Shown here piece after piece: positions 15,001-27,000 of a DNA stretch of 64,000 nt (within the stretch, counting starts at the first letter, position 1; the number at the start of each line of letters is the position of its first letter). The position numbers were made by a program. Source of the DNA: an uncultured candidate division Zixibacteria bacterium (GTDB lineage: Bacteria; Zixibacteria; MSB-5A5; RBG-16-43-9); assembly GCA_963713865.1 (NCBI GenBank), contig OY970208.1, positions 800,001 through 864,000 on the forward strand, given 5' to 3'.

Positions 15001-18000
15001 GGTAGCTATAAATGTGTTTCCTGAAGATAGTGAGACAGAGATTTCATTCTTGAGAGAAAAATCTTTGCAAGCAGGAGCGGATGAGGTAGCAGTTGCGGAT
15101 ATGTTTGTCAAAGGGGGTGAAGGTGGAATAGAATTAGCTGAGAAAGCTGTTAAATTATGTGAAAGAGGAGCTTATTTCAAGTTCCTGTATGAAAGTGGAG
15201 GTATAAAGGAAAAAATTGAGAAAATCGCCATGAAAATTTACGGAGCAGGCGAGGTCCTCTATTATCCCTTAGCTGAGAAAAGGATCGATCTTTTCAAATC
15301 CTGGGGACTGGATAATCTTCCGATCTGTATTGCCAAGACTCCTTACTCTTTTTCTTCTGACCCGAAGCTCAAAGGAAAGCCGGAGAATTTTCGTTTTCCC
15401 ATAGAGGATTTAAGACCTGCGACTGGTGCCGGTTATCTGTATGCTTTAGCAGGCGATATTATGACTATGCCGGGTTTACCCACCACCCCGGCGGCATTTA
15501 ACTTCGATTTAGACAAAGATGGTAATATCAGTGGTTTAACATAGGAAAGGAGTCAAGATGGAAAAGCTTTTAGAGATATTATCGCAGGCAATGCAGGTGG
15601 AGATAGACGGGTATCAGTTTTACAAATTAGCCTCTGAGAAAACTACAGATAAAAAGGGGAAAGAGGTCTTTTTGTCCCTGGCTGAAGATGAAAAAAACCA
15701 TTATCATATCTTAAAAGGGCAGCATGAGAAAGTAAGAAAGACCGGAGGGATTGAGTTTATAGATAAAAAAGTCGAGTTCTTCAAATCCGATAGTCCCAGT
15801 CCCATTTTCTCTGAGGATTTCAGGAAAAGGATTAAGGATATGCACTTCGAGATGTCGGCTTTAAGTATCGGGGCACTCCTGGAGAAAAATTCCATAGAAT
15901 ATTATCGAAAGTATGCGGAGCAAAGTGAGAATGAAGAGGTTAAAAAACTTTTCTCCTATCTTATAGAATGGGAACAGGAGCATCTTAAGGCATTGATTAC
16001 TCAGCAGAAATATCTGAAAGAGGCATACTGGGAGGATGCTCGCTTCTTCCCGGATATTTAGAGTCCGAGAAACGGATTCAAAGGAAAGGGAAAAATGAAA
16101 ATATTAGTGGTTTATTACAGTATGACCGGGCACGTTTTCAGATTAGCCCAGGCATTAGCACAAGGAGCTAAGGAAGTAGAGGGTGCTGAGGTAAGCTTAA
16201 AAACAGTTGAGGAGTTAATCTCTCAAGATATTATCGCAAGAAGCCCTGCCATAAAAAAAGCAAAAGAGGAACAGAAGGATATCCCCATAGCTACAAACGA
16301 TGATTTAATCTGGGCTGATGCAGTTATCTTCGGCTCTCCCACCAGATATGGCAATATGTGCGCTCAGATGAGAAACTTTTTGGATAAAACCGGTTCCTTG
16401 TGGGGAAAAGGACAGTTGGTAGGAAAACCTGCCGGGGTTTTCTGCTCAACCGGAACTATGCACGGCGGACAAGAGACCACGTTGATTTCGATGATAACCA
16501 CTTTACTGCATCACGGAATGATAATCGTGGGAATTCCTTATACTGAACCACTGCTCTCCACCACCCAGAGAGGGGGTACCCCATACGGAGCCTCCTCGGT
16601 CTCAGGACCCAAAGGAGACCAACCGCCGAATGAAGATGAGCTTTATTTGGCAAAAGCGCTGGGGAAGAGAGTGGCGGAAATAACGAAAAAATTAAAAGGT
16701 GAGTAAAAGAGTTTTAGAAAATATATGGGGAAAAAGGATAAAGAATTATCCAGGAGGAAAAAATGTCTATAAAGCCTGGGGAGAAAGCACCGGATTTTGT
16801 TTTGAAGGGGCAGGATGATAAAGATTATAAGTTATCTGATTTTCTGGGTAAGAATATAGTCTTAGCCTTTTATCCGGCTGATTTCAGCCCGGTCTGTTCC
16901 AAGGAGCATACTTGTTTTGTCAACGATATGAAAAGATTTGAGAACTTGAATGCTGTTGTTTTTGGGATAAGCGTGGACAATATCTGGTCTCATAAAGCTT
17001 TTGCGGAAAAGCTTCAGCTCAAATATCCACTTCTCTCTGATTTCCACCCTAAAGGGGCAGTTGCTTCTAAATATGGATTATACCTGTCCGATCTGGGGAT
17101 AACCAATCGGGCTACGGTGATAATCGATAAAAAGGGAGCAGTCAGATACGTTCAGGTTTATGATATCCCACAGCAGAGAGAAAATAGTGAGCTTATAAAG
17201 ATTTTGGAGGATTTAAAATAAGCTGTCTAAAAAATCAACTGAGCAAGCCTTTTAAAAGCTCATTGATCTGTTGAACTTTGAAGGGCTTTAAAAGAAATCC
17301 GTCTGGCTTGGGTTCTTCTTCCGGGTCATATTCAGCCTCATAACCGGTTATCAGCACTACTGGCAACTGAGGGAAATTCTGCTTCACCGCCCTTAACAGC
17401 CCATGCCCATCCATTTTAGGCATCATTAGATCAGTTATAACCAGGTCAAAGGTCTCCTTATTTAGAATCGCTAAAGCTTCTTCTCCATCTTGAGCTTTTT
17501 GGCTTTTGAGGTCAAAACACTGCAACAGGATATCCGAAAGAAGATTAGACATATTAGGGTTATCTTCTACAATAAGGACTTTTTTATTTTTTAAACTATA
17601 GCCCATATCATCCAGATCGTTTTTACTTATTAATCTTATCGGCTGGAAAAAGATTTTTATCAATAAAAAAGAAATTGTAGCTGTTGGGTTTGCTCCTGAA
17701 AAACCAGGATTTTAGAAGCAATAAAGAAATCCAACCAGAATGTTAAAAGGGGTGGAGATAATCTCCACCCACTTTTCAAAGCTCTCTGTATATTTTTATA
17801 TACCAGTTTTACTTTTAAAACTTACTTGGGCATTACGTCAACATTTAAAATCTCCTCCGCAAGTTCGGGCGATTCTGATTCAGACTCTTCTTCCCCGTGC
17901 TCGAAGATCGGCAAATAGCGGGTCGCCAGAGAGAAGACGAAAATTCCAGTTGCCACTATGGTTAAGGTTATGGAGAGTTCCATCCAGGAGGGGAAATAAT

Positions 18001-24000: not shown

Positions 24001-27000
24001 CTGCAAAATTTTAGGGGTGACCAACCTTGATCTTTTTGTTCCAGTTTTAACTTATGTTTTTGGTGAAGCCCAGTTGGAAGGGAAGGCTGCGGTGGTTTCC
24101 AGTTTCAGGTTGAGAGATGAGTTATACGGATTACCAAAAAATCCGGATAAGCTGAAAGAGCGATTGGAAAAAGAAGCTGTTCACGAATTGGGTCACACTT
24201 TCGCTCTGATACATTGTCCAAACCCCAGATGCGTGATGTATACTTCCACCTATGCAGAGGAGATCGACTTCAAATCCAAAGATTTCTGCAATAGCTGCTC
24301 CTCTATTCTGGAGAAGAAAAAAGAACAACTATTACAGAAATAAAAACCAGCTCAAGACCTTAGATTATTTAAGCCTTCTTGTCCCTTATCTCCATCAAGA
24401 TAAAGTTTAAAGCAAAAAAGAGACATCCAACTGCAAACCTGAAAGCGCTCTGGGAGGATGCTCCCAGGGGCATTAAATCAGCCAGCCTGAAAATTATTGC
24501 AAGGATAAAAGCAATAGCAGCCAGTACCATTAAAAGGTTAGCCAGGGTCTTCATAAGAAACCTCCGGTTTTTTGGTTAGGGGTTAATAATAGATAGCTTA
24601 TTGTTAAAAAAATTCCCTGTTGCTTTAAATAAATTAGAATTTTATAAAACAGTTGTCAATGAAAATGTTATGGCTTTTCTTAAAAATTAGGTTGCCTTAA
24701 CTTGAGAATATATTTAAACCTCACTCCTCTTCCCTTTCCTACTGATTCGTTTATAGGAATAAATGAGAGGAAAAGATTAATACTTGTACACTTCATGGTA
24801 ACTTCAAAAGAATTTTTTAATACAGAAAGGTTTTCCCTTGATTTCCCTCAAAAATTTGCTTAATTAGTTTCGTTTATTGAAAGGGTCTTAAAGCGAAAGT
24901 GGCGGAACTGGCATACGCGCTGGATTTAGGATCCAGTGCCCTCAAGGCTTGGGGGTTCAACTCCCCCCTTTCGCACCATTCTGGTTAATAGATAAAGAGG
25001 AGGAAATATTGAAAGTTAATGTTACTGAAGAAAAAGCCTGGAAAAGAGTTTTGGAAATAGAGATACCGGTGGAGAAGGTTAATGGGGAATTCGACTCGGT
25101 TTATCTGGAGTATCAGAGAAAAGCCAAAATTCCGGGTTTCCGTCCGGGAAAAGCGCCATTAGAGCTGATCAAAAAAAGATATAAGGATAAAGTTACCAAA
25201 GACGTCCTGGAAAACCTTTTACCCGAAGCTTATCAGGAAGCAGTCAAACAAACCAGTTTAATCCCTTTGACCCTGCCTCTTTTGAAGGACATAGATTTTC
25301 AGGAAGGGTTGCCTATAAAGTTCAAAGCTCAAATCGAGATCCGGCCGGAAATAGAGCCAAAGGATTACCAGGGATTACAGCTGAAAAGAAAAATAATCGA
25401 GATCAAGGAAGAGCACGTTCATAACACCTTGAATTATCTTCAGGATAAAAATGCGGAATTACATTCTGTCGATAGAGAGGCAAAAGATGGAGATTTTTTG
25501 GTGGTGGATTTGGAGGAGATAGCAGAAAGAGAAGCTAAAGCAAAAAAGAAAGCGGAGAATCAAACCATCTGGTTGAAAAAAGAAAATCTTTTAGCCGAAT
25601 TTTACCGTGGATTTACCGGTGCAAAAGCAGGTGAGGAAAAAGAGATCGAGGCAATCTATCCCCAGGATTATTTTGAGAAAAACCTGGCGGGTAAAATCAT
25701 TAAATACAAAGCCAAAGTAAAAGAGGTAAAGGAAAAAATACTTCCGGAGATAAACGATGATTTTGCCAAAAGCCTGGGCGAATATAAAAGCTTAGAAGAG
25801 CTGAAGAGTAAGATCAAAGAAGATTTAAAAATAAAGGCAAAGCAAGATGAAGAAAAGGATTTAGCCAATCAGGTTATAAAACAGGTGGTGGAAAATAACA
25901 GCTTTGAGGTGCCTGAATCTCTTCTGGATCTTTATCTGGACTCCGTGATGGAGGATTTGAGGAAAACATACAAGAAAGTGGATGAAGAGAAAATCAGGGA
26001 GCAATACCGGGAGCTGGGCTTAGCCCGGATCAGGTGGGAGTTCATCCGGCAGGAGATAGCCAAAAAGGAGAAGATCGAGGTTACCAAAGAGGAAATAGAT
26101 AAATGGGTGGAGAATTTCGCTAAAACCAATTCCCTGGAGCTGAAACAGGCTAAGGAGTTTATAGCCCAGAACAAAAAAATCGAGAGCATAAAAGATACCA
26201 TCCTGGAAGATAAGGTGATAGATTTCATCTTGAATAATTCTAAAATAAAAGAGGAAATCATAAAAGAATCCAAACAGGAAAAAGAAGAGAAAAAAATCAT
26301 AAAACCCTGAAGAATTGGTAGCACAGGCGTCCCCGCCTGTGGCTTGCTAAATTAGTTTAAAAAGGAGAGAATATGACCCTGGTTCCATTCGTTATCGAAC
26401 AAACTAGTAGAGGGGAGAGAGCTTATGACATTTTCTCCCGGCTTTTAAAGGACCGGATTATCTTCATCGGCTCGCCCATCGATGATAATGTTGCTAATCT
26501 GGTAATCGCCCAGCTTCTGTTCCTGGATGCAGAAGATCCGGAAAAGGATATCAACATCTATATCAATTCCCCGGGCGGGATAGTTACCTCAGGTCTTGCC
26601 ATTTACGATACTATGCAGTTTGTCAAGCCGGCCGTGGCTACAACCTGTGTGGGGTTAGCCGCTAGTATCGCCGCGCTCCTTCTGGCTGGCGGAACAAAAG
26701 GGAAAAGGTCTGCGCTTCCCCATTCCAGGATGCTGATTCACCAGCCCTGGGGAGGGGTTCAGGGACAGGTAACCGATATCGAGATCCAGACCAAAGAGAT
26801 GAGAACTGTCAGGGAAATCTTAAACGATATATTATCCAAGCATACCGGACAGCTGGTGGAAAAGATAGTTAAGGATACAGACCGGAACTTCTTTATGTCT
26901 CCAGAGGAGTCTAAGGCTTATGGTCTGATCGATGAGATTTTCCAGAAGAAGACCAAATAAGAGAAGAATTTCTATAAGTTTTGAGGAAAAGTAGTTTCGC

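Follow-up and report, generated by a model that had tools for sequence, protein, structure and literature searches.

The locus considered here raises the question of why a protein with the fold of the glycine cleavage H protein should be anchored in a membrane, have a glutamate at the position of the lipoyl lysine, and be encoded between a response-regulator receiver and an iron-sulfur/NrfD pair of the HybA/HybB type. The window, that is, the whole stretch of 64,000 nucleotides of an uncultured Zixibacteria genome that was analysed, came with a genome-wide survey's note on this gene set, which proves to be real: four minus-strand and two plus-strand open reading frames are found as listed in Table 1, with GTG at 21350 or ATG at 21341 as the start of the receiver. 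The answer favoured here, tentatively and with somewhat less than even confidence, is that the cluster is a redox sensing and response unit with GcvH-fold adaptors, a reading drawn from gene content, residue conservation, fusions and swaps, and the conservation of promoter and operator--in other words, from guilt by association.

Table 1. Features of the locus, in window positions.
Feature	Position	Strand	Basis
NrfD-family 10-TM protein, HybB/HmcC type	17822..19018	-	PF03916
HybA/HmcB-type 4x[4Fe-4S] protein with C-terminal membrane tail, without Tat signal	19043..19798	-	start and ribosome-binding site, Cys pattern
GcvH-fold protein, N-terminal anchor, non-lipoylated, C-terminal helical extension	19919..20590	-	PF01597
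E107 codon (lipoyl-lysine position)	20270..20272	-	alignment with H proteins
Receiver-only response regulator, hydrophobic C-terminal segment, no output domain	20661..21350	-	PF00072, residues 10-118
Rex-like operator	21368..21385	.	box match with 2 mismatches, and conservation
Sigma-54 (-24/-12) promoter of the four-gene operon	21396..21411	-	pattern in related upstream regions
Candidate upstream activator site, imperfect palindrome	21518..21540	.	like-spaced palindromes in relatives, by eye
Sigma-54-type response regulator, degenerate	22398..23795	+	GAMAGA at 240, Walker B FLNEV
Archaemetzincin (M54) zinc protease, no signal peptide	23798..24343	+	NF033823

As the survey had proposed, the Fe-S and NrfD proteins resemble HybA and HybB, the tail-anchored four-cluster protein and 10-TM protein of E. 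coli hydrogenase-2, to which each is 34% identical; their best NCBIfam matches are HmcB and HmcC of the Desulfovibrio Hmc complex (HmcABCDEF), both below cut-off (263 vs 420 and 344 vs 550 bits), with HybB next for the NrfD protein and likewise under its cut-off. Neither a single-sequence nor a profile search found a relative of the NrfD protein in the PDB. The two adjacent genes have the features of an NrfD-type redox pair, namely a 4x[4Fe-4S] protein and a 10-TM protein with quinone-site and proton-path residues: D58, Y99, E131, H182 and E225 of the latter align with D58, Y99, E133, H184 and E228 of HybB, and the S129 position is conserved as well. D58 and Y99 are required for HybB function, according to the available part of the source (PMC13059093). 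The 16 cysteines of the Fe-S protein are invariant in 151 of 151 relatives, the first being residue 14, and the ATG of its gene sits after a clear ribosome-binding site. The survey's term 'quinone-linked module' holds as far as the conservation of these NrfD residues goes, from which the pair would be expected to react with quinone, but finds no counterpart in quinone synthesis: MqnA and MqnD were not found in the genome, nor MqnC and MenD in the genome or four relatives. UbiA-family genes are present.

No catalytic subunit was found beside the pair, and the genome's hydrogenase subunits, used as queries, matched nothing in 180 related loci (L009-L188) and 20 more; this check used four enzymes of the window genome as queries, and for other enzyme types it rests on neighbour cluster counts. 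It is possible, though rather unlikely, that the pair is an orphan respiratory module, serving as membrane arm to an enzyme whose genes lie elsewhere, with the GcvH-like protein as a structural third subunit replacing HmcD-F. The enzyme here would be a Tat-exported group 1 [NiFe(Se)] hydrogenase (contig 2574406-2576979), carrying the Fe-S protein as a hitchhiker; it bears a Tat signal, its Rex box is perfect and no membrane subunit is encoded next to it, and the window's NrfD protein is the only one in the genome. A comparable arrangement has been proposed, in the available part of one report, for a periplasmic FeFe hydrogenase on which a Tat-less, tail-anchored Fe-S protein and HybB hitchhike, the Fe-S protein retaining the C-terminal tail and lacking a signal peptide (10.1101/2023.11.02.564894). 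Also in keeping with an orphan module are cytochrome-bearing variants and NrfD-cytochrome fusions among related loci and a GcvH-like paralog that at its N-terminus matches the small respiratory-complex subunit HmcD, in six of six proteins tested (two above cut-off). The hydrogenase, however, was found in only four of the seven order genomes with a window-type unit, not in two that are 98% complete (G004, G026), and in 10/34 order genomes as against 29/34 for NrfD; among five distant genomes with a Tat-less pair, one has a strong full-length group 1 large-subunit match and one has none at all. This distribution rejects the hydrogenase as an obligatory partner. Moreover, an orphan module leaves the receiver fusions, anchor swaps and NrfD-free loci described below unexplained, and no homology of the window's own anchor to the HmcD-like anchor was detected (probability 4.6%).

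The placement of the Fe-S protein bears on a second, improbable explanation: that it is cytoplasmic and, with the GcvH-like protein as a docking piece, connects a cytoplasmic donor to the membrane protein. No Tat motif occurs in the Fe-S proteins of the 80 loci compared, in part by selection, because these are the best 80 of at least 575 confirmed matches to the Fe-S alignment and lean towards the window's clade; the Tat-less proteins form one clade of 85 (support 0.85, midpoint root). A looser pattern flags L078, L080 and L081 of this clade, where the frame extends upstream of the likely start, and two further proteins that are separate Tat-type paralogs. Only five Tat-like open reading frames occur in the same 80 best loci, none plausible as an in-operon carrier, so that neither a signal of its own nor a recurring adjacent carrier gene was found there for Tat export of the Fe-S subunit; in the FeFe hydrogenase system, by the available account, the Tat-bearing carrier is the adjacent gene. 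TatC is present in 5/5 genomes. A cytoplasmic location would suit these results, as well as the GcvH domain following its anchor on the positive-inside side, but not the charge bias of NrfD, which is canonical (N-in/C-in) in 84/84 Tat-less relatives, nor the five Tat-less loci in which a single additional helix fuses NrfD to a c-type cytochrome of the periplasm; the Fe-S tail, furthermore, keeps basic residues after its helix, and GcvH-like genes are equally frequent with Tat-bearing Fe-S proteins.

Upstream of the operon, a loose pattern finds a sigma-54 element in 24/24 related upstream regions, in 20 of them 55-71 nt ahead of the start, and a stricter pattern finds it in 11/19; rpoN is present in the genome. 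The Rex box of the survey's note is indeed Rex-like. A genome-wide scan with the Rex consensus gave 33 such boxes vs 12-23 in three shuffles, and a single box is weak when taken alone; this one lies directly downstream of the sigma-54 element, overlying the expected transcription start, is identical in L009, L010, L207, L209 and L210, and has counterparts no more than 45 nt from the element in 16 of the 24 related regions. The genome also has a gene of Rex architecture with a box of its own, and the conserved operator over the promoter, together with this gene, points to a Rex regulon. The candidate activator palindrome lies about 110-130 nt before the promoter, with similar ones, judged by eye, at related loci. 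Scans for sigma-70 promoters and terminators stayed at about chance level.

Two points of the survey's note are not borne out, namely the divergent arrangement as a conserved unit and the divergent sigma-54 protein as an activator. In L009 and L010, the two closest loci fetched, the genes are co-directional throughout and are preceded by a kinase and another activator; the divergent layout is thus confined to a lineage. It does not stem from an assembly error: contigs from two other sequencing runs span the junction in that same layout, and a third run has the co-directional joint. The sigma-54 protein has lost GAFTGA, and asparagine replaces the Walker B aspartate; it is likewise altered in L009 and L010, and 89 of 93 regulators from related loci have an intact GAFTGA or GSFTGA. 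Because of these changes, and because no kinase of the matching type was found in the genome, it is unlikely to be the activator; it is probably the orphan of a paralogous kinase system, being 66-67% identical to relatives' intact GAFTGA-type regulators and 42% to the genome's intact partner.

The near-constant partner of the unit is a di-heme Cache histidine kinase, present in 36 of the 40 well-flanked loci that were selected through the Fe-S protein (the GcvH-like protein occurs in all 40, a sigma-54 activator in 30 and M54 in 29); in the window genome it is encoded about 150 kb away, together with an intact sigma-54 activator (contig 970797-973795). The survey overlooked this kinase, as well as the sigma-54 promoter and the lack of a Tat signal. 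Its sensor domain has a Cache fold with CxxCH, as do the sCache_heme sensors of membrane signalling proteins (GSU0582/GSU0935, Tll0287; PMC12889525). The motif is present in 105 of 108 cognate kinases; unlike those sensors, they also have a second, CX4CH motif (103) and a conserved Met and His, and two that were scanned gave no PF11845 match, one scoring 25.9 bits to PF21563 (cut-off 27). That the unit is a decaying relic in the window genome, whatever its role elsewhere, is very unlikely: the cluster is split into three pieces, one activator is degenerate and the Cys-rich paralog is absent, yet all frames are intact, the promoter, Rex box, 16 cysteines and channel residues are conserved, and the cognate kinase and activator are likewise intact at another site in the genome.

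The GcvH-like protein is predicted, with a pLDDT of 89.7, to adopt the H-protein fold (Foldseek E 8.9e-12; Z 18.1, rmsd 1.6 over 131 residues). This barrel-sandwich is shared with GcvH, GcvH-L, LbpA and the GcvH-related NF045810 family, from which the window protein differs in lacking the lipoyl lysine motif and in having a membrane anchor and a family-specific helical extension of about 60 residues (conserved W168, E172, LxDGG 194-198 and F220), for which the whole-protein model gave no structure match. Its scores fall far short of the NCBIfam cut-offs for gcvH, not_gcvH and GcvH_rel_desulf (63/117, 53/116, 39/144 and 34/150 bits), and the ESM Atlas gave only clusters named GcvH. E107 aligns with the lipoyl lysine of PDB H proteins and of the genome's own GcvH, as the survey had it, and the loss, which that note had checked in one genome only, is family-wide: lysine occurs in 12/223 aligned relatives, in every case within a G-K-R turn rather than the lipoylation motif E-x-(V/M)-K, and in 8/73 of a second set, one of these being a true carrier (L225). 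The alignments thus support a use of the GcvH fold without lipoate that would extend to the family. That the protein carries lipoate or sulfur in the manner of LbpA or GcvH-L, via Lys108 or another residue, is most improbable, for although the predicted fold is complete, residue +1 is lysine in the window protein and most long fusions, and relatives bear the database name 'lipoate-binding protein', that residue is arginine in 77/136 single-domain relatives with the turn motif lost, the window protein has no cysteine, the frequent neighbours include no recurrent lipoate ligase, Hdr or sulfur-relay cluster, and the sole Hdr-linked match (L225) is a short H protein that has the lysine but not the extension.

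What the fold does instead is suggested by its associations. Among 39 loci picked by the GcvH-like protein (40 minus L225), 24 receiver-GcvH-like fusions are spread over 14; other partners are HmcD-like, solute-binding and Fe-S domains. Signalling genes are present in 31 of the 39 and the Fe-S/NrfD genes in 32; seven have the kinase, activator or protease without NrfD, and eight, some of which lie at contig ends, have the GcvH-like, Fe-S and NrfD genes but no signalling gene within the part fetched. In the two genomes whose cluster is split (L232/L233, L240/L241), each half keeps a GcvH-like gene. In 11 of 20 further order loci the window's anchor (MVA..TF..D..RR) bears a receiver, not the GcvH domain, right before the Fe-S gene, and two of these (L207, L209) have no GcvH-like gene in the stretch; receivers with no output domain and a hydrophobic C-terminal segment recur in related loci. 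About a quarter of the top 150 profile matches (38) are fusions of 527-579 aa with a receptor-like layout, behind an extracytoplasmic domain that weakly matches PBP_like_2 in 3/18 scanned, and the same kinase, activator and M54 are encoded at their loci. Activator and M54 are also present, without NrfD, in L226, where the domain is fused to a NuoG/HoxU-like Fe-S subunit, and in L231, where the protein lies beside an FeFe-hydrogenase-like kinase. Cys-rich paralogs number 15 in 14 loci by profile. On these patterns the GcvH fold behaves as a signalling domain, and the survey's placement of it in the redox module needs widening, since its links to the two-component system, judged by fusions and swaps, are no weaker. 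The anchored, lipoate-free copy, which many bacteria of soil and sediment have, looks like a so far undescribed adaptor that connects gene regulation with a redox module.

A redox sensing and response unit might work as follows. The membrane kinase would read redox state or a heme ligand through its periplasmic two-heme Cache domain and phosphorylate the sigma-54 activator encoded beside it, which would switch on the receiver-GcvH-like-FeS-NrfD operon, with Rex repressing it until NADH increases. The HybAB/HmcBC-type pair would then react with the membrane quinone pool without a catalytic subunit of its own, and the GcvH-fold proteins and membrane-tethered receivers would act as cytoplasm-facing adaptors coupling the pair to the kinase. 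The archaemetzincin, which scores 164 bits to NF033823 (cut-off 145), probably trims one of the cluster's regulators; it has the three histidines, catalytic glutamate and four cysteines of the M54 signature HEXXHXXGXXHCX4CXMX17CXXC as given in the available text of PMC3427221, with Ala for Gly and an X16 spacer.

Several observations count against a signalling role. The HmcD match fits a structural one, and Rex control and the invariant proton-path residues fit a bulk respiratory job; no export route is apparent that would place the Tat-less Fe-S protein at the periplasmic face of NrfD, and menaquinone head-group genes were not found in the lineage. To these may be added the eight loci without signalling genes and a 93%-complete relative, G009, that keeps kinase and activator with no match to NrfD or an anchored GcvH-like protein; the kinase can therefore persist without the module. 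A bolder version, unlikely as it stands, is that the Fe-S/NrfD pair, once a respiratory arm, has become the input of a membrane signalling complex, sensing the quinone pool and handing electrons on to the two hemes of the kinase, and that a new, non-lipoylated GcvH-fold family wires a quinone module, an NADH-linked Fe-S module, an FeFe-hydrogenase-like sensor and a periplasmic solute-binding domain to kinase, activator and M54; for the Tat-less clade it would also need an undescribed export route.

Known systems share parts of this arrangement. Relative to hydrogenase-2, the window unit lacks hybO/hybC nearby and a Tat signal, and adds genes for the GcvH-fold protein, receiver, kinase and protease. 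Order relatives approach Hmc, adding a class III cytochrome of 8-13 hemes and an HmcD-like helix fused to the GcvH-fold domain, but no gene of HmcE or HmcF size recurs in the locus maps, scores are under equivalog cut-offs, and the window unit has no cytochrome, Tat signal or detectable HmcD likeness. In Geobacter, the quinone-linked cbcBA (Cbc5) operon, which includes an additional response regulator, is switched on by BccR through a sigma-54 promoter when the redox potential is low; CbcB, however, is a di-heme b protein rather than an NrfD/Fe-S pair, and the available part of that report describes no GcvH-fold protein, Rex box or archaemetzincin (10.1101/2021.04.15.440034). Two-heme sensor domains are reported for Gsu0591/Gsu0599 in the available text of PMC3831638. 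A literature search, outside whose reach lie most subscription journals and supplements, found no title or abstract describing the cluster.

If the redox sensing reading is true, thousands of genes that carry the name 'glycine cleavage H protein', from Acidobacteriota, Bacteroidota, Ignavibacteria and uncultured groups related to them, gain a role, the 'HybA/HybB' labels of such genes should not be taken as hydrogenases, and bacterial archaemetzincins, whose biological role is little known according to the available text of PMC3427221, gain a concrete pathway context. The questions raised are how a two-heme kinase lets anaerobes sense quinone-pool or periplasmic redox state, and how a tail-anchored protein with four clusters but neither a Tat signal nor an adjacent carrier is put in place. 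Samples from two phyla gave 27/121 and 22/151 genomes, frequencies compatible with the thousands of genomes that the survey had counted.

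The six ORFs of the unit have the positions and domain matches that the genome-wide survey's note had assigned to them. In the GcvH-like protein among them (223 residues) a helix at the N-terminus (2-24) is followed by an H-protein domain (about 44-171) and then by a helical extension; its structure model is confident (pLDDT 89.7) and resembles known H-protein structures (Foldseek E 8.9e-12; Z 18.1 with rmsd 1.6 across 131 residues). Alignments with H proteins place E107 opposite the lipoyl lysine, as had been claimed, and the source genome also has a separate true GcvH, adjoining gcvP-sized genes. 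The loss of this lysine, previously checked in one genome only, now holds family-wide: in an alignment of 223 sequences (the window protein, search hits and 49 locus proteins) the column is variable, lysine occurring in 12/223, every time within a G-K-R turn, and in 0/21 receiver-GcvH-like fusions. The same alignment reveals a conserved, family-specific extension (W168 91%, E172 86%, D196 86%, G197 99%, G198 98%, F220 88%). One GcvH-like paralog, absent from searches of the source genome, bears a Cys-rich N-terminal motif, CxWMxAGxVxYKLC..C..C (in L022 and in 41 loci of L009-L108), which has no Pfam match and may be a metal or Fe-S site.

The genes with which this fold travels were surveyed in 40 loci, 20 each from an acidobacterial and a Bacteroidota genome sample, covering most of 65 matches; dropping one true carrier (L225, with an Hdr-linked, lysine-bearing H protein) left 39. 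Fe-S and NrfD genes occur in 32 of these, the heme kinase in 30, the activator in 21 and the archaemetzincin (M54) in 18; signalling genes are found without NrfD in 7/39, and NrfD without a signalling gene in the fetched stretch in 8/39. In genomes where the cluster is split, a GcvH-like copy stays with each half. Receiver-GcvH-like fusions number 24, within 14 of the 39 loci. Among 20 further loci from the window's order such fusions occur in ten, the window-type anchor bears a receiver rather than the GcvH domain in 11, and in two the fetched stretch has no GcvH-like domain at all. In locus L226 the GcvH-like domain is fused to an NADH-linked 2Fe-2S/4Fe-4S subunit beside NuoE/F-like genes, and in L231 a form with a double Cys-rich repeat adjoins a kinase with a FeFe-hydrogenase-like domain; activator and M54 are present in both. 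Because the domain is both fused to and exchanged for receivers and follows kinase, activator and protease across differing redox inputs, gene order and domain architecture suggest, most simply, that it serves as a signalling adaptor.

A profile search for GcvH-like proteins, with E no greater than 1e-30, recovered 434 clusters formed at 50% identity; at a threshold set so that the source genome's true GcvH drops out, 27/121 genomes of the acidobacterial phylum sample and 22/151 of the Bacteroidota sample have a match (centre genome included in each). The best 80 of at least 575 Fe-S protein matches, whose records name Ignavibacteria, Bacteroidota, Acidobacteriota, Eisenbacteria, KSB1, Gemmatimonadota, Zixibacteria or Abyssobacteria in their titles, are accompanied by NrfD in 79 cases, GcvH-like genes in 73, heme kinase in 66, activator in 56 and M54 in 48; for the 40 well-flanked loci within this set (7 kb or more to either side) the counts are GcvH-like 40, heme kinase 36, activator 30 and M54 29, with all four together in 29. 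Three forms are distinguished: form A combines a multiheme cytochrome, Tat Fe-S protein and NrfD with three GcvH-like genes, of which two are anchored and one is Cys-rich; form B, the window type, is Tat-less and rarely has a cytochrome; and form C has an extracytoplasmic-domain/GcvH-like fusion, Tat Fe-S protein and NrfD without a cytochrome. Many genomes of the order contain two forms, and a separate kinase accompanies each. Because the N-terminus of the form A paralog ahead of the cytochrome matches HmcD (6/6, E 1e-10 to 7e-6, two above the cut-off), form A is read as an HmcABCD-like core without HmcEF, no genes of HmcE/F size recurring in the locus maps; the window's GcvH-like anchor gave no match to HmcD. 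Receptor-like proteins (P0104 and relatives; L109-L188) join an extracytoplasmic solute-binding-like domain through one helix to a GcvH-like domain, and the motifs PIDxNxNG and GVWIGKYP are conserved in them. Of the 80 loci, 10 (L045, L059, L071, L083, L088, L089, L091, L093, L100, L101) have a PLP-dependent decarboxylase close to the cluster.

The survey's note overlooked a heme kinase and an intact activator encoded elsewhere in the source genome, which are 97% and 95% identical to those of L010. In the closest loci, L009 and L010, one strand carries kinase, sigma-54 activator (GSFTGA), receiver, GcvH-like, Fe-S, NrfD, second activator and M54. The divergent layout reported earlier is real in near kin but derived. 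The window's divergent regulator, described there as a sigma-54 activator, has GAMAGA and FLNEV in place of the usual motifs; it is 66-67% identical to the intact regulators of a paralogous system and 42% to the source genome's intact partner, and just one kinase of this sensor type is encoded in that genome. The divergent regulator is most plausibly an orphan, which may at most repress or serve as a phosphate sink. The kinase sensor domain has a Cache fold; relatives keep CxxCH in 105/108 and a second CX4CH in 103/108, and a conserved Met and His could be axial heme ligands. Single-heme Cache sensors are described as NO sensors when fused to signalling modules and as redox proteins when stand-alone (PMC12889525), and two-heme versions are mentioned for Geobacter and Anaeromyxobacter (PMC3831638). 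A second archaemetzincin of the source genome, 45% identical, adjoins a single-domain response regulator.

The window's sigma-54 element has counterparts in 24/24 upstream regions (by a loose pattern of unestimated chance level), 55-71 nt ahead of the start in 20/24, and is abutted by a Rex-like box, immediately downstream or immediately upstream, in 16/24. The source genome has further Rex-like boxes ahead of a Rex-architecture gene, ahead of nuoA-like genes and ahead of a hydrogenase; the one at the hydrogenase is a perfect match. In L016, L017, L018, L020, L021 and L022 a short ORF without annotation (about 30 codons) lies between the sigma-54 promoter and the operon, ahead of the first GcvH-like gene, and encodes a membrane peptide resembling the anchor of the next gene.

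Re-measurement gave the 34% identity stated previously both for NrfD against E. coli HybB and for the Fe-S protein against HybA. Residues D58, Y99, E131, H182 and E225 of this NrfD, the only one in the source genome, align with HybB D58, Y99, E133, H184 and E228 (the last three in what we take to be the HybB numbering). Across 84 Tat-less NrfD relatives the first four are invariant, E225 is kept in 79 and the charge bias is canonical in all 84; the Fe-S protein retains its C-tail, and all 16 of its Cys are conserved across 151 relatives. HybB function is described as needing D58 and Y99 (PMC13059093). A dimer of Fe-S protein and NrfD is treated as a respiratory module in PMC6303296, where HmcC function is given as uncertain. 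We infer from sequence that the pair would use quinone. A genome search found no MqnA/D in the source genome despite its NrfD and nuo genes; neither MqnC nor MenD had a match in it or in related genomes G002, G004, G008 and G026 (each at least 90% complete, NrfD present), and all five have 4-5 UbiA-family genes. In L053, L055, L066, L080, L094 and L260 the NrfD continues at its C-terminus into a fused c domain with 2-3 hemes or a 13-heme cytochrome.

The window Fe-S protein starts 13 residues ahead of its first Cys and has no Tat signal; neither has any of the best 80 of at least 575 matches (0/80), a selection biased toward this type. In a tree, Tat-less Fe-S proteins form one clade, separate from Tat-bearing forms. 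In the sole such case found in the literature, as described in 10.1101/2023.11.02.564894, a Tat-bearing FeFe hydrogenase adjoins, whereas window-type loci have no recurring carrier; no match to the source genome's hydrogenase subunits occurs in 180 loci (L009-L188) or in 20 more, and the one Mo-enzyme among the 80 has an Fe-S/NrfD pair of its own. The source genome encodes a Tat-signal DUF362 protein, a possible carrier in trans, and Tat hits in frames of similar length occur in G004, G008 and G012.

We tentatively favour a single scheme, in which the kinase would sense, the activator and Rex would gate the operon, and the Fe-S/NrfD pair would react with quinone while being linked to the kinase by GcvH-fold and receiver proteins; its nearest worked-out parallel is BccR/CbcBA, as described in 10.1101/2021.04.15.440034. 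That the pair is instead the membrane arm of an enzyme encoded in trans, the main rival, is rather unlikely: a Rex-coregulated orphan hydrogenase of the source genome fits there (it is of group 1 [NiFe(Se)] type, bears a Tat signal and lies with maturation genes but close to no membrane subunit, its Rex box being 66 nt upstream), but this hydrogenase was found in only 4/7 genomes with a window-type unit and 10/34 in the order. The pair may serve bulk electron transport, signal, or do both; that it is a pure sensor, which would be the novel case, is rather unlikely. Every part of the cluster belongs to a known family, the overall kind being a Hyb/Hmc-type dimer under two-component control; what appears new is a GcvH-fold family without the lipoyl lysine, with extension and fusions, inside such a cluster. 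Full-text searches of open-licence papers found neither this gene combination, nor this family, nor the carrier-less Tat-less clade. Comparative evidence points to a widespread and surprising reuse of the GcvH fold. The lone receiver after NrfD was left out of the unit because relatives' contigs break between the two.

Coordinates of features in the window, elsewhere in the source genome and in fetched loci
Feature	Location	Strand	Remark
Rubrerythrin-like, flavodoxin-like, peroxiredoxin genes	window 15558-17663		convergent with operon
Lone receiver	window 17235-17663		
Sigma-54 element	window 21396-21411		
tRNA-Leu	window 24893-24978		between M54 and trigger factor
Radical-SAM-like, HD-like, ParB-like ORFs, then DUF86/nucleotidyltransferase-like pair	window 28416-32900	minus	labels presumed from translations; possibly a defence island
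Second archaemetzincin	contig 83147-84419		
Heme kinase, intact activator	contig 970797-973795		
DUF362 protein	L193:1474-2430 (contig about 1118023)		
Hydrogenase, maturation genes	contig 2574406-2577494		outside window
Cys-rich GcvH-like paralog	L022:14188-15060		
Subunit fusion and neighbours	L226:9823-13912		
Double-repeat form and kinase	L231:4328-9734
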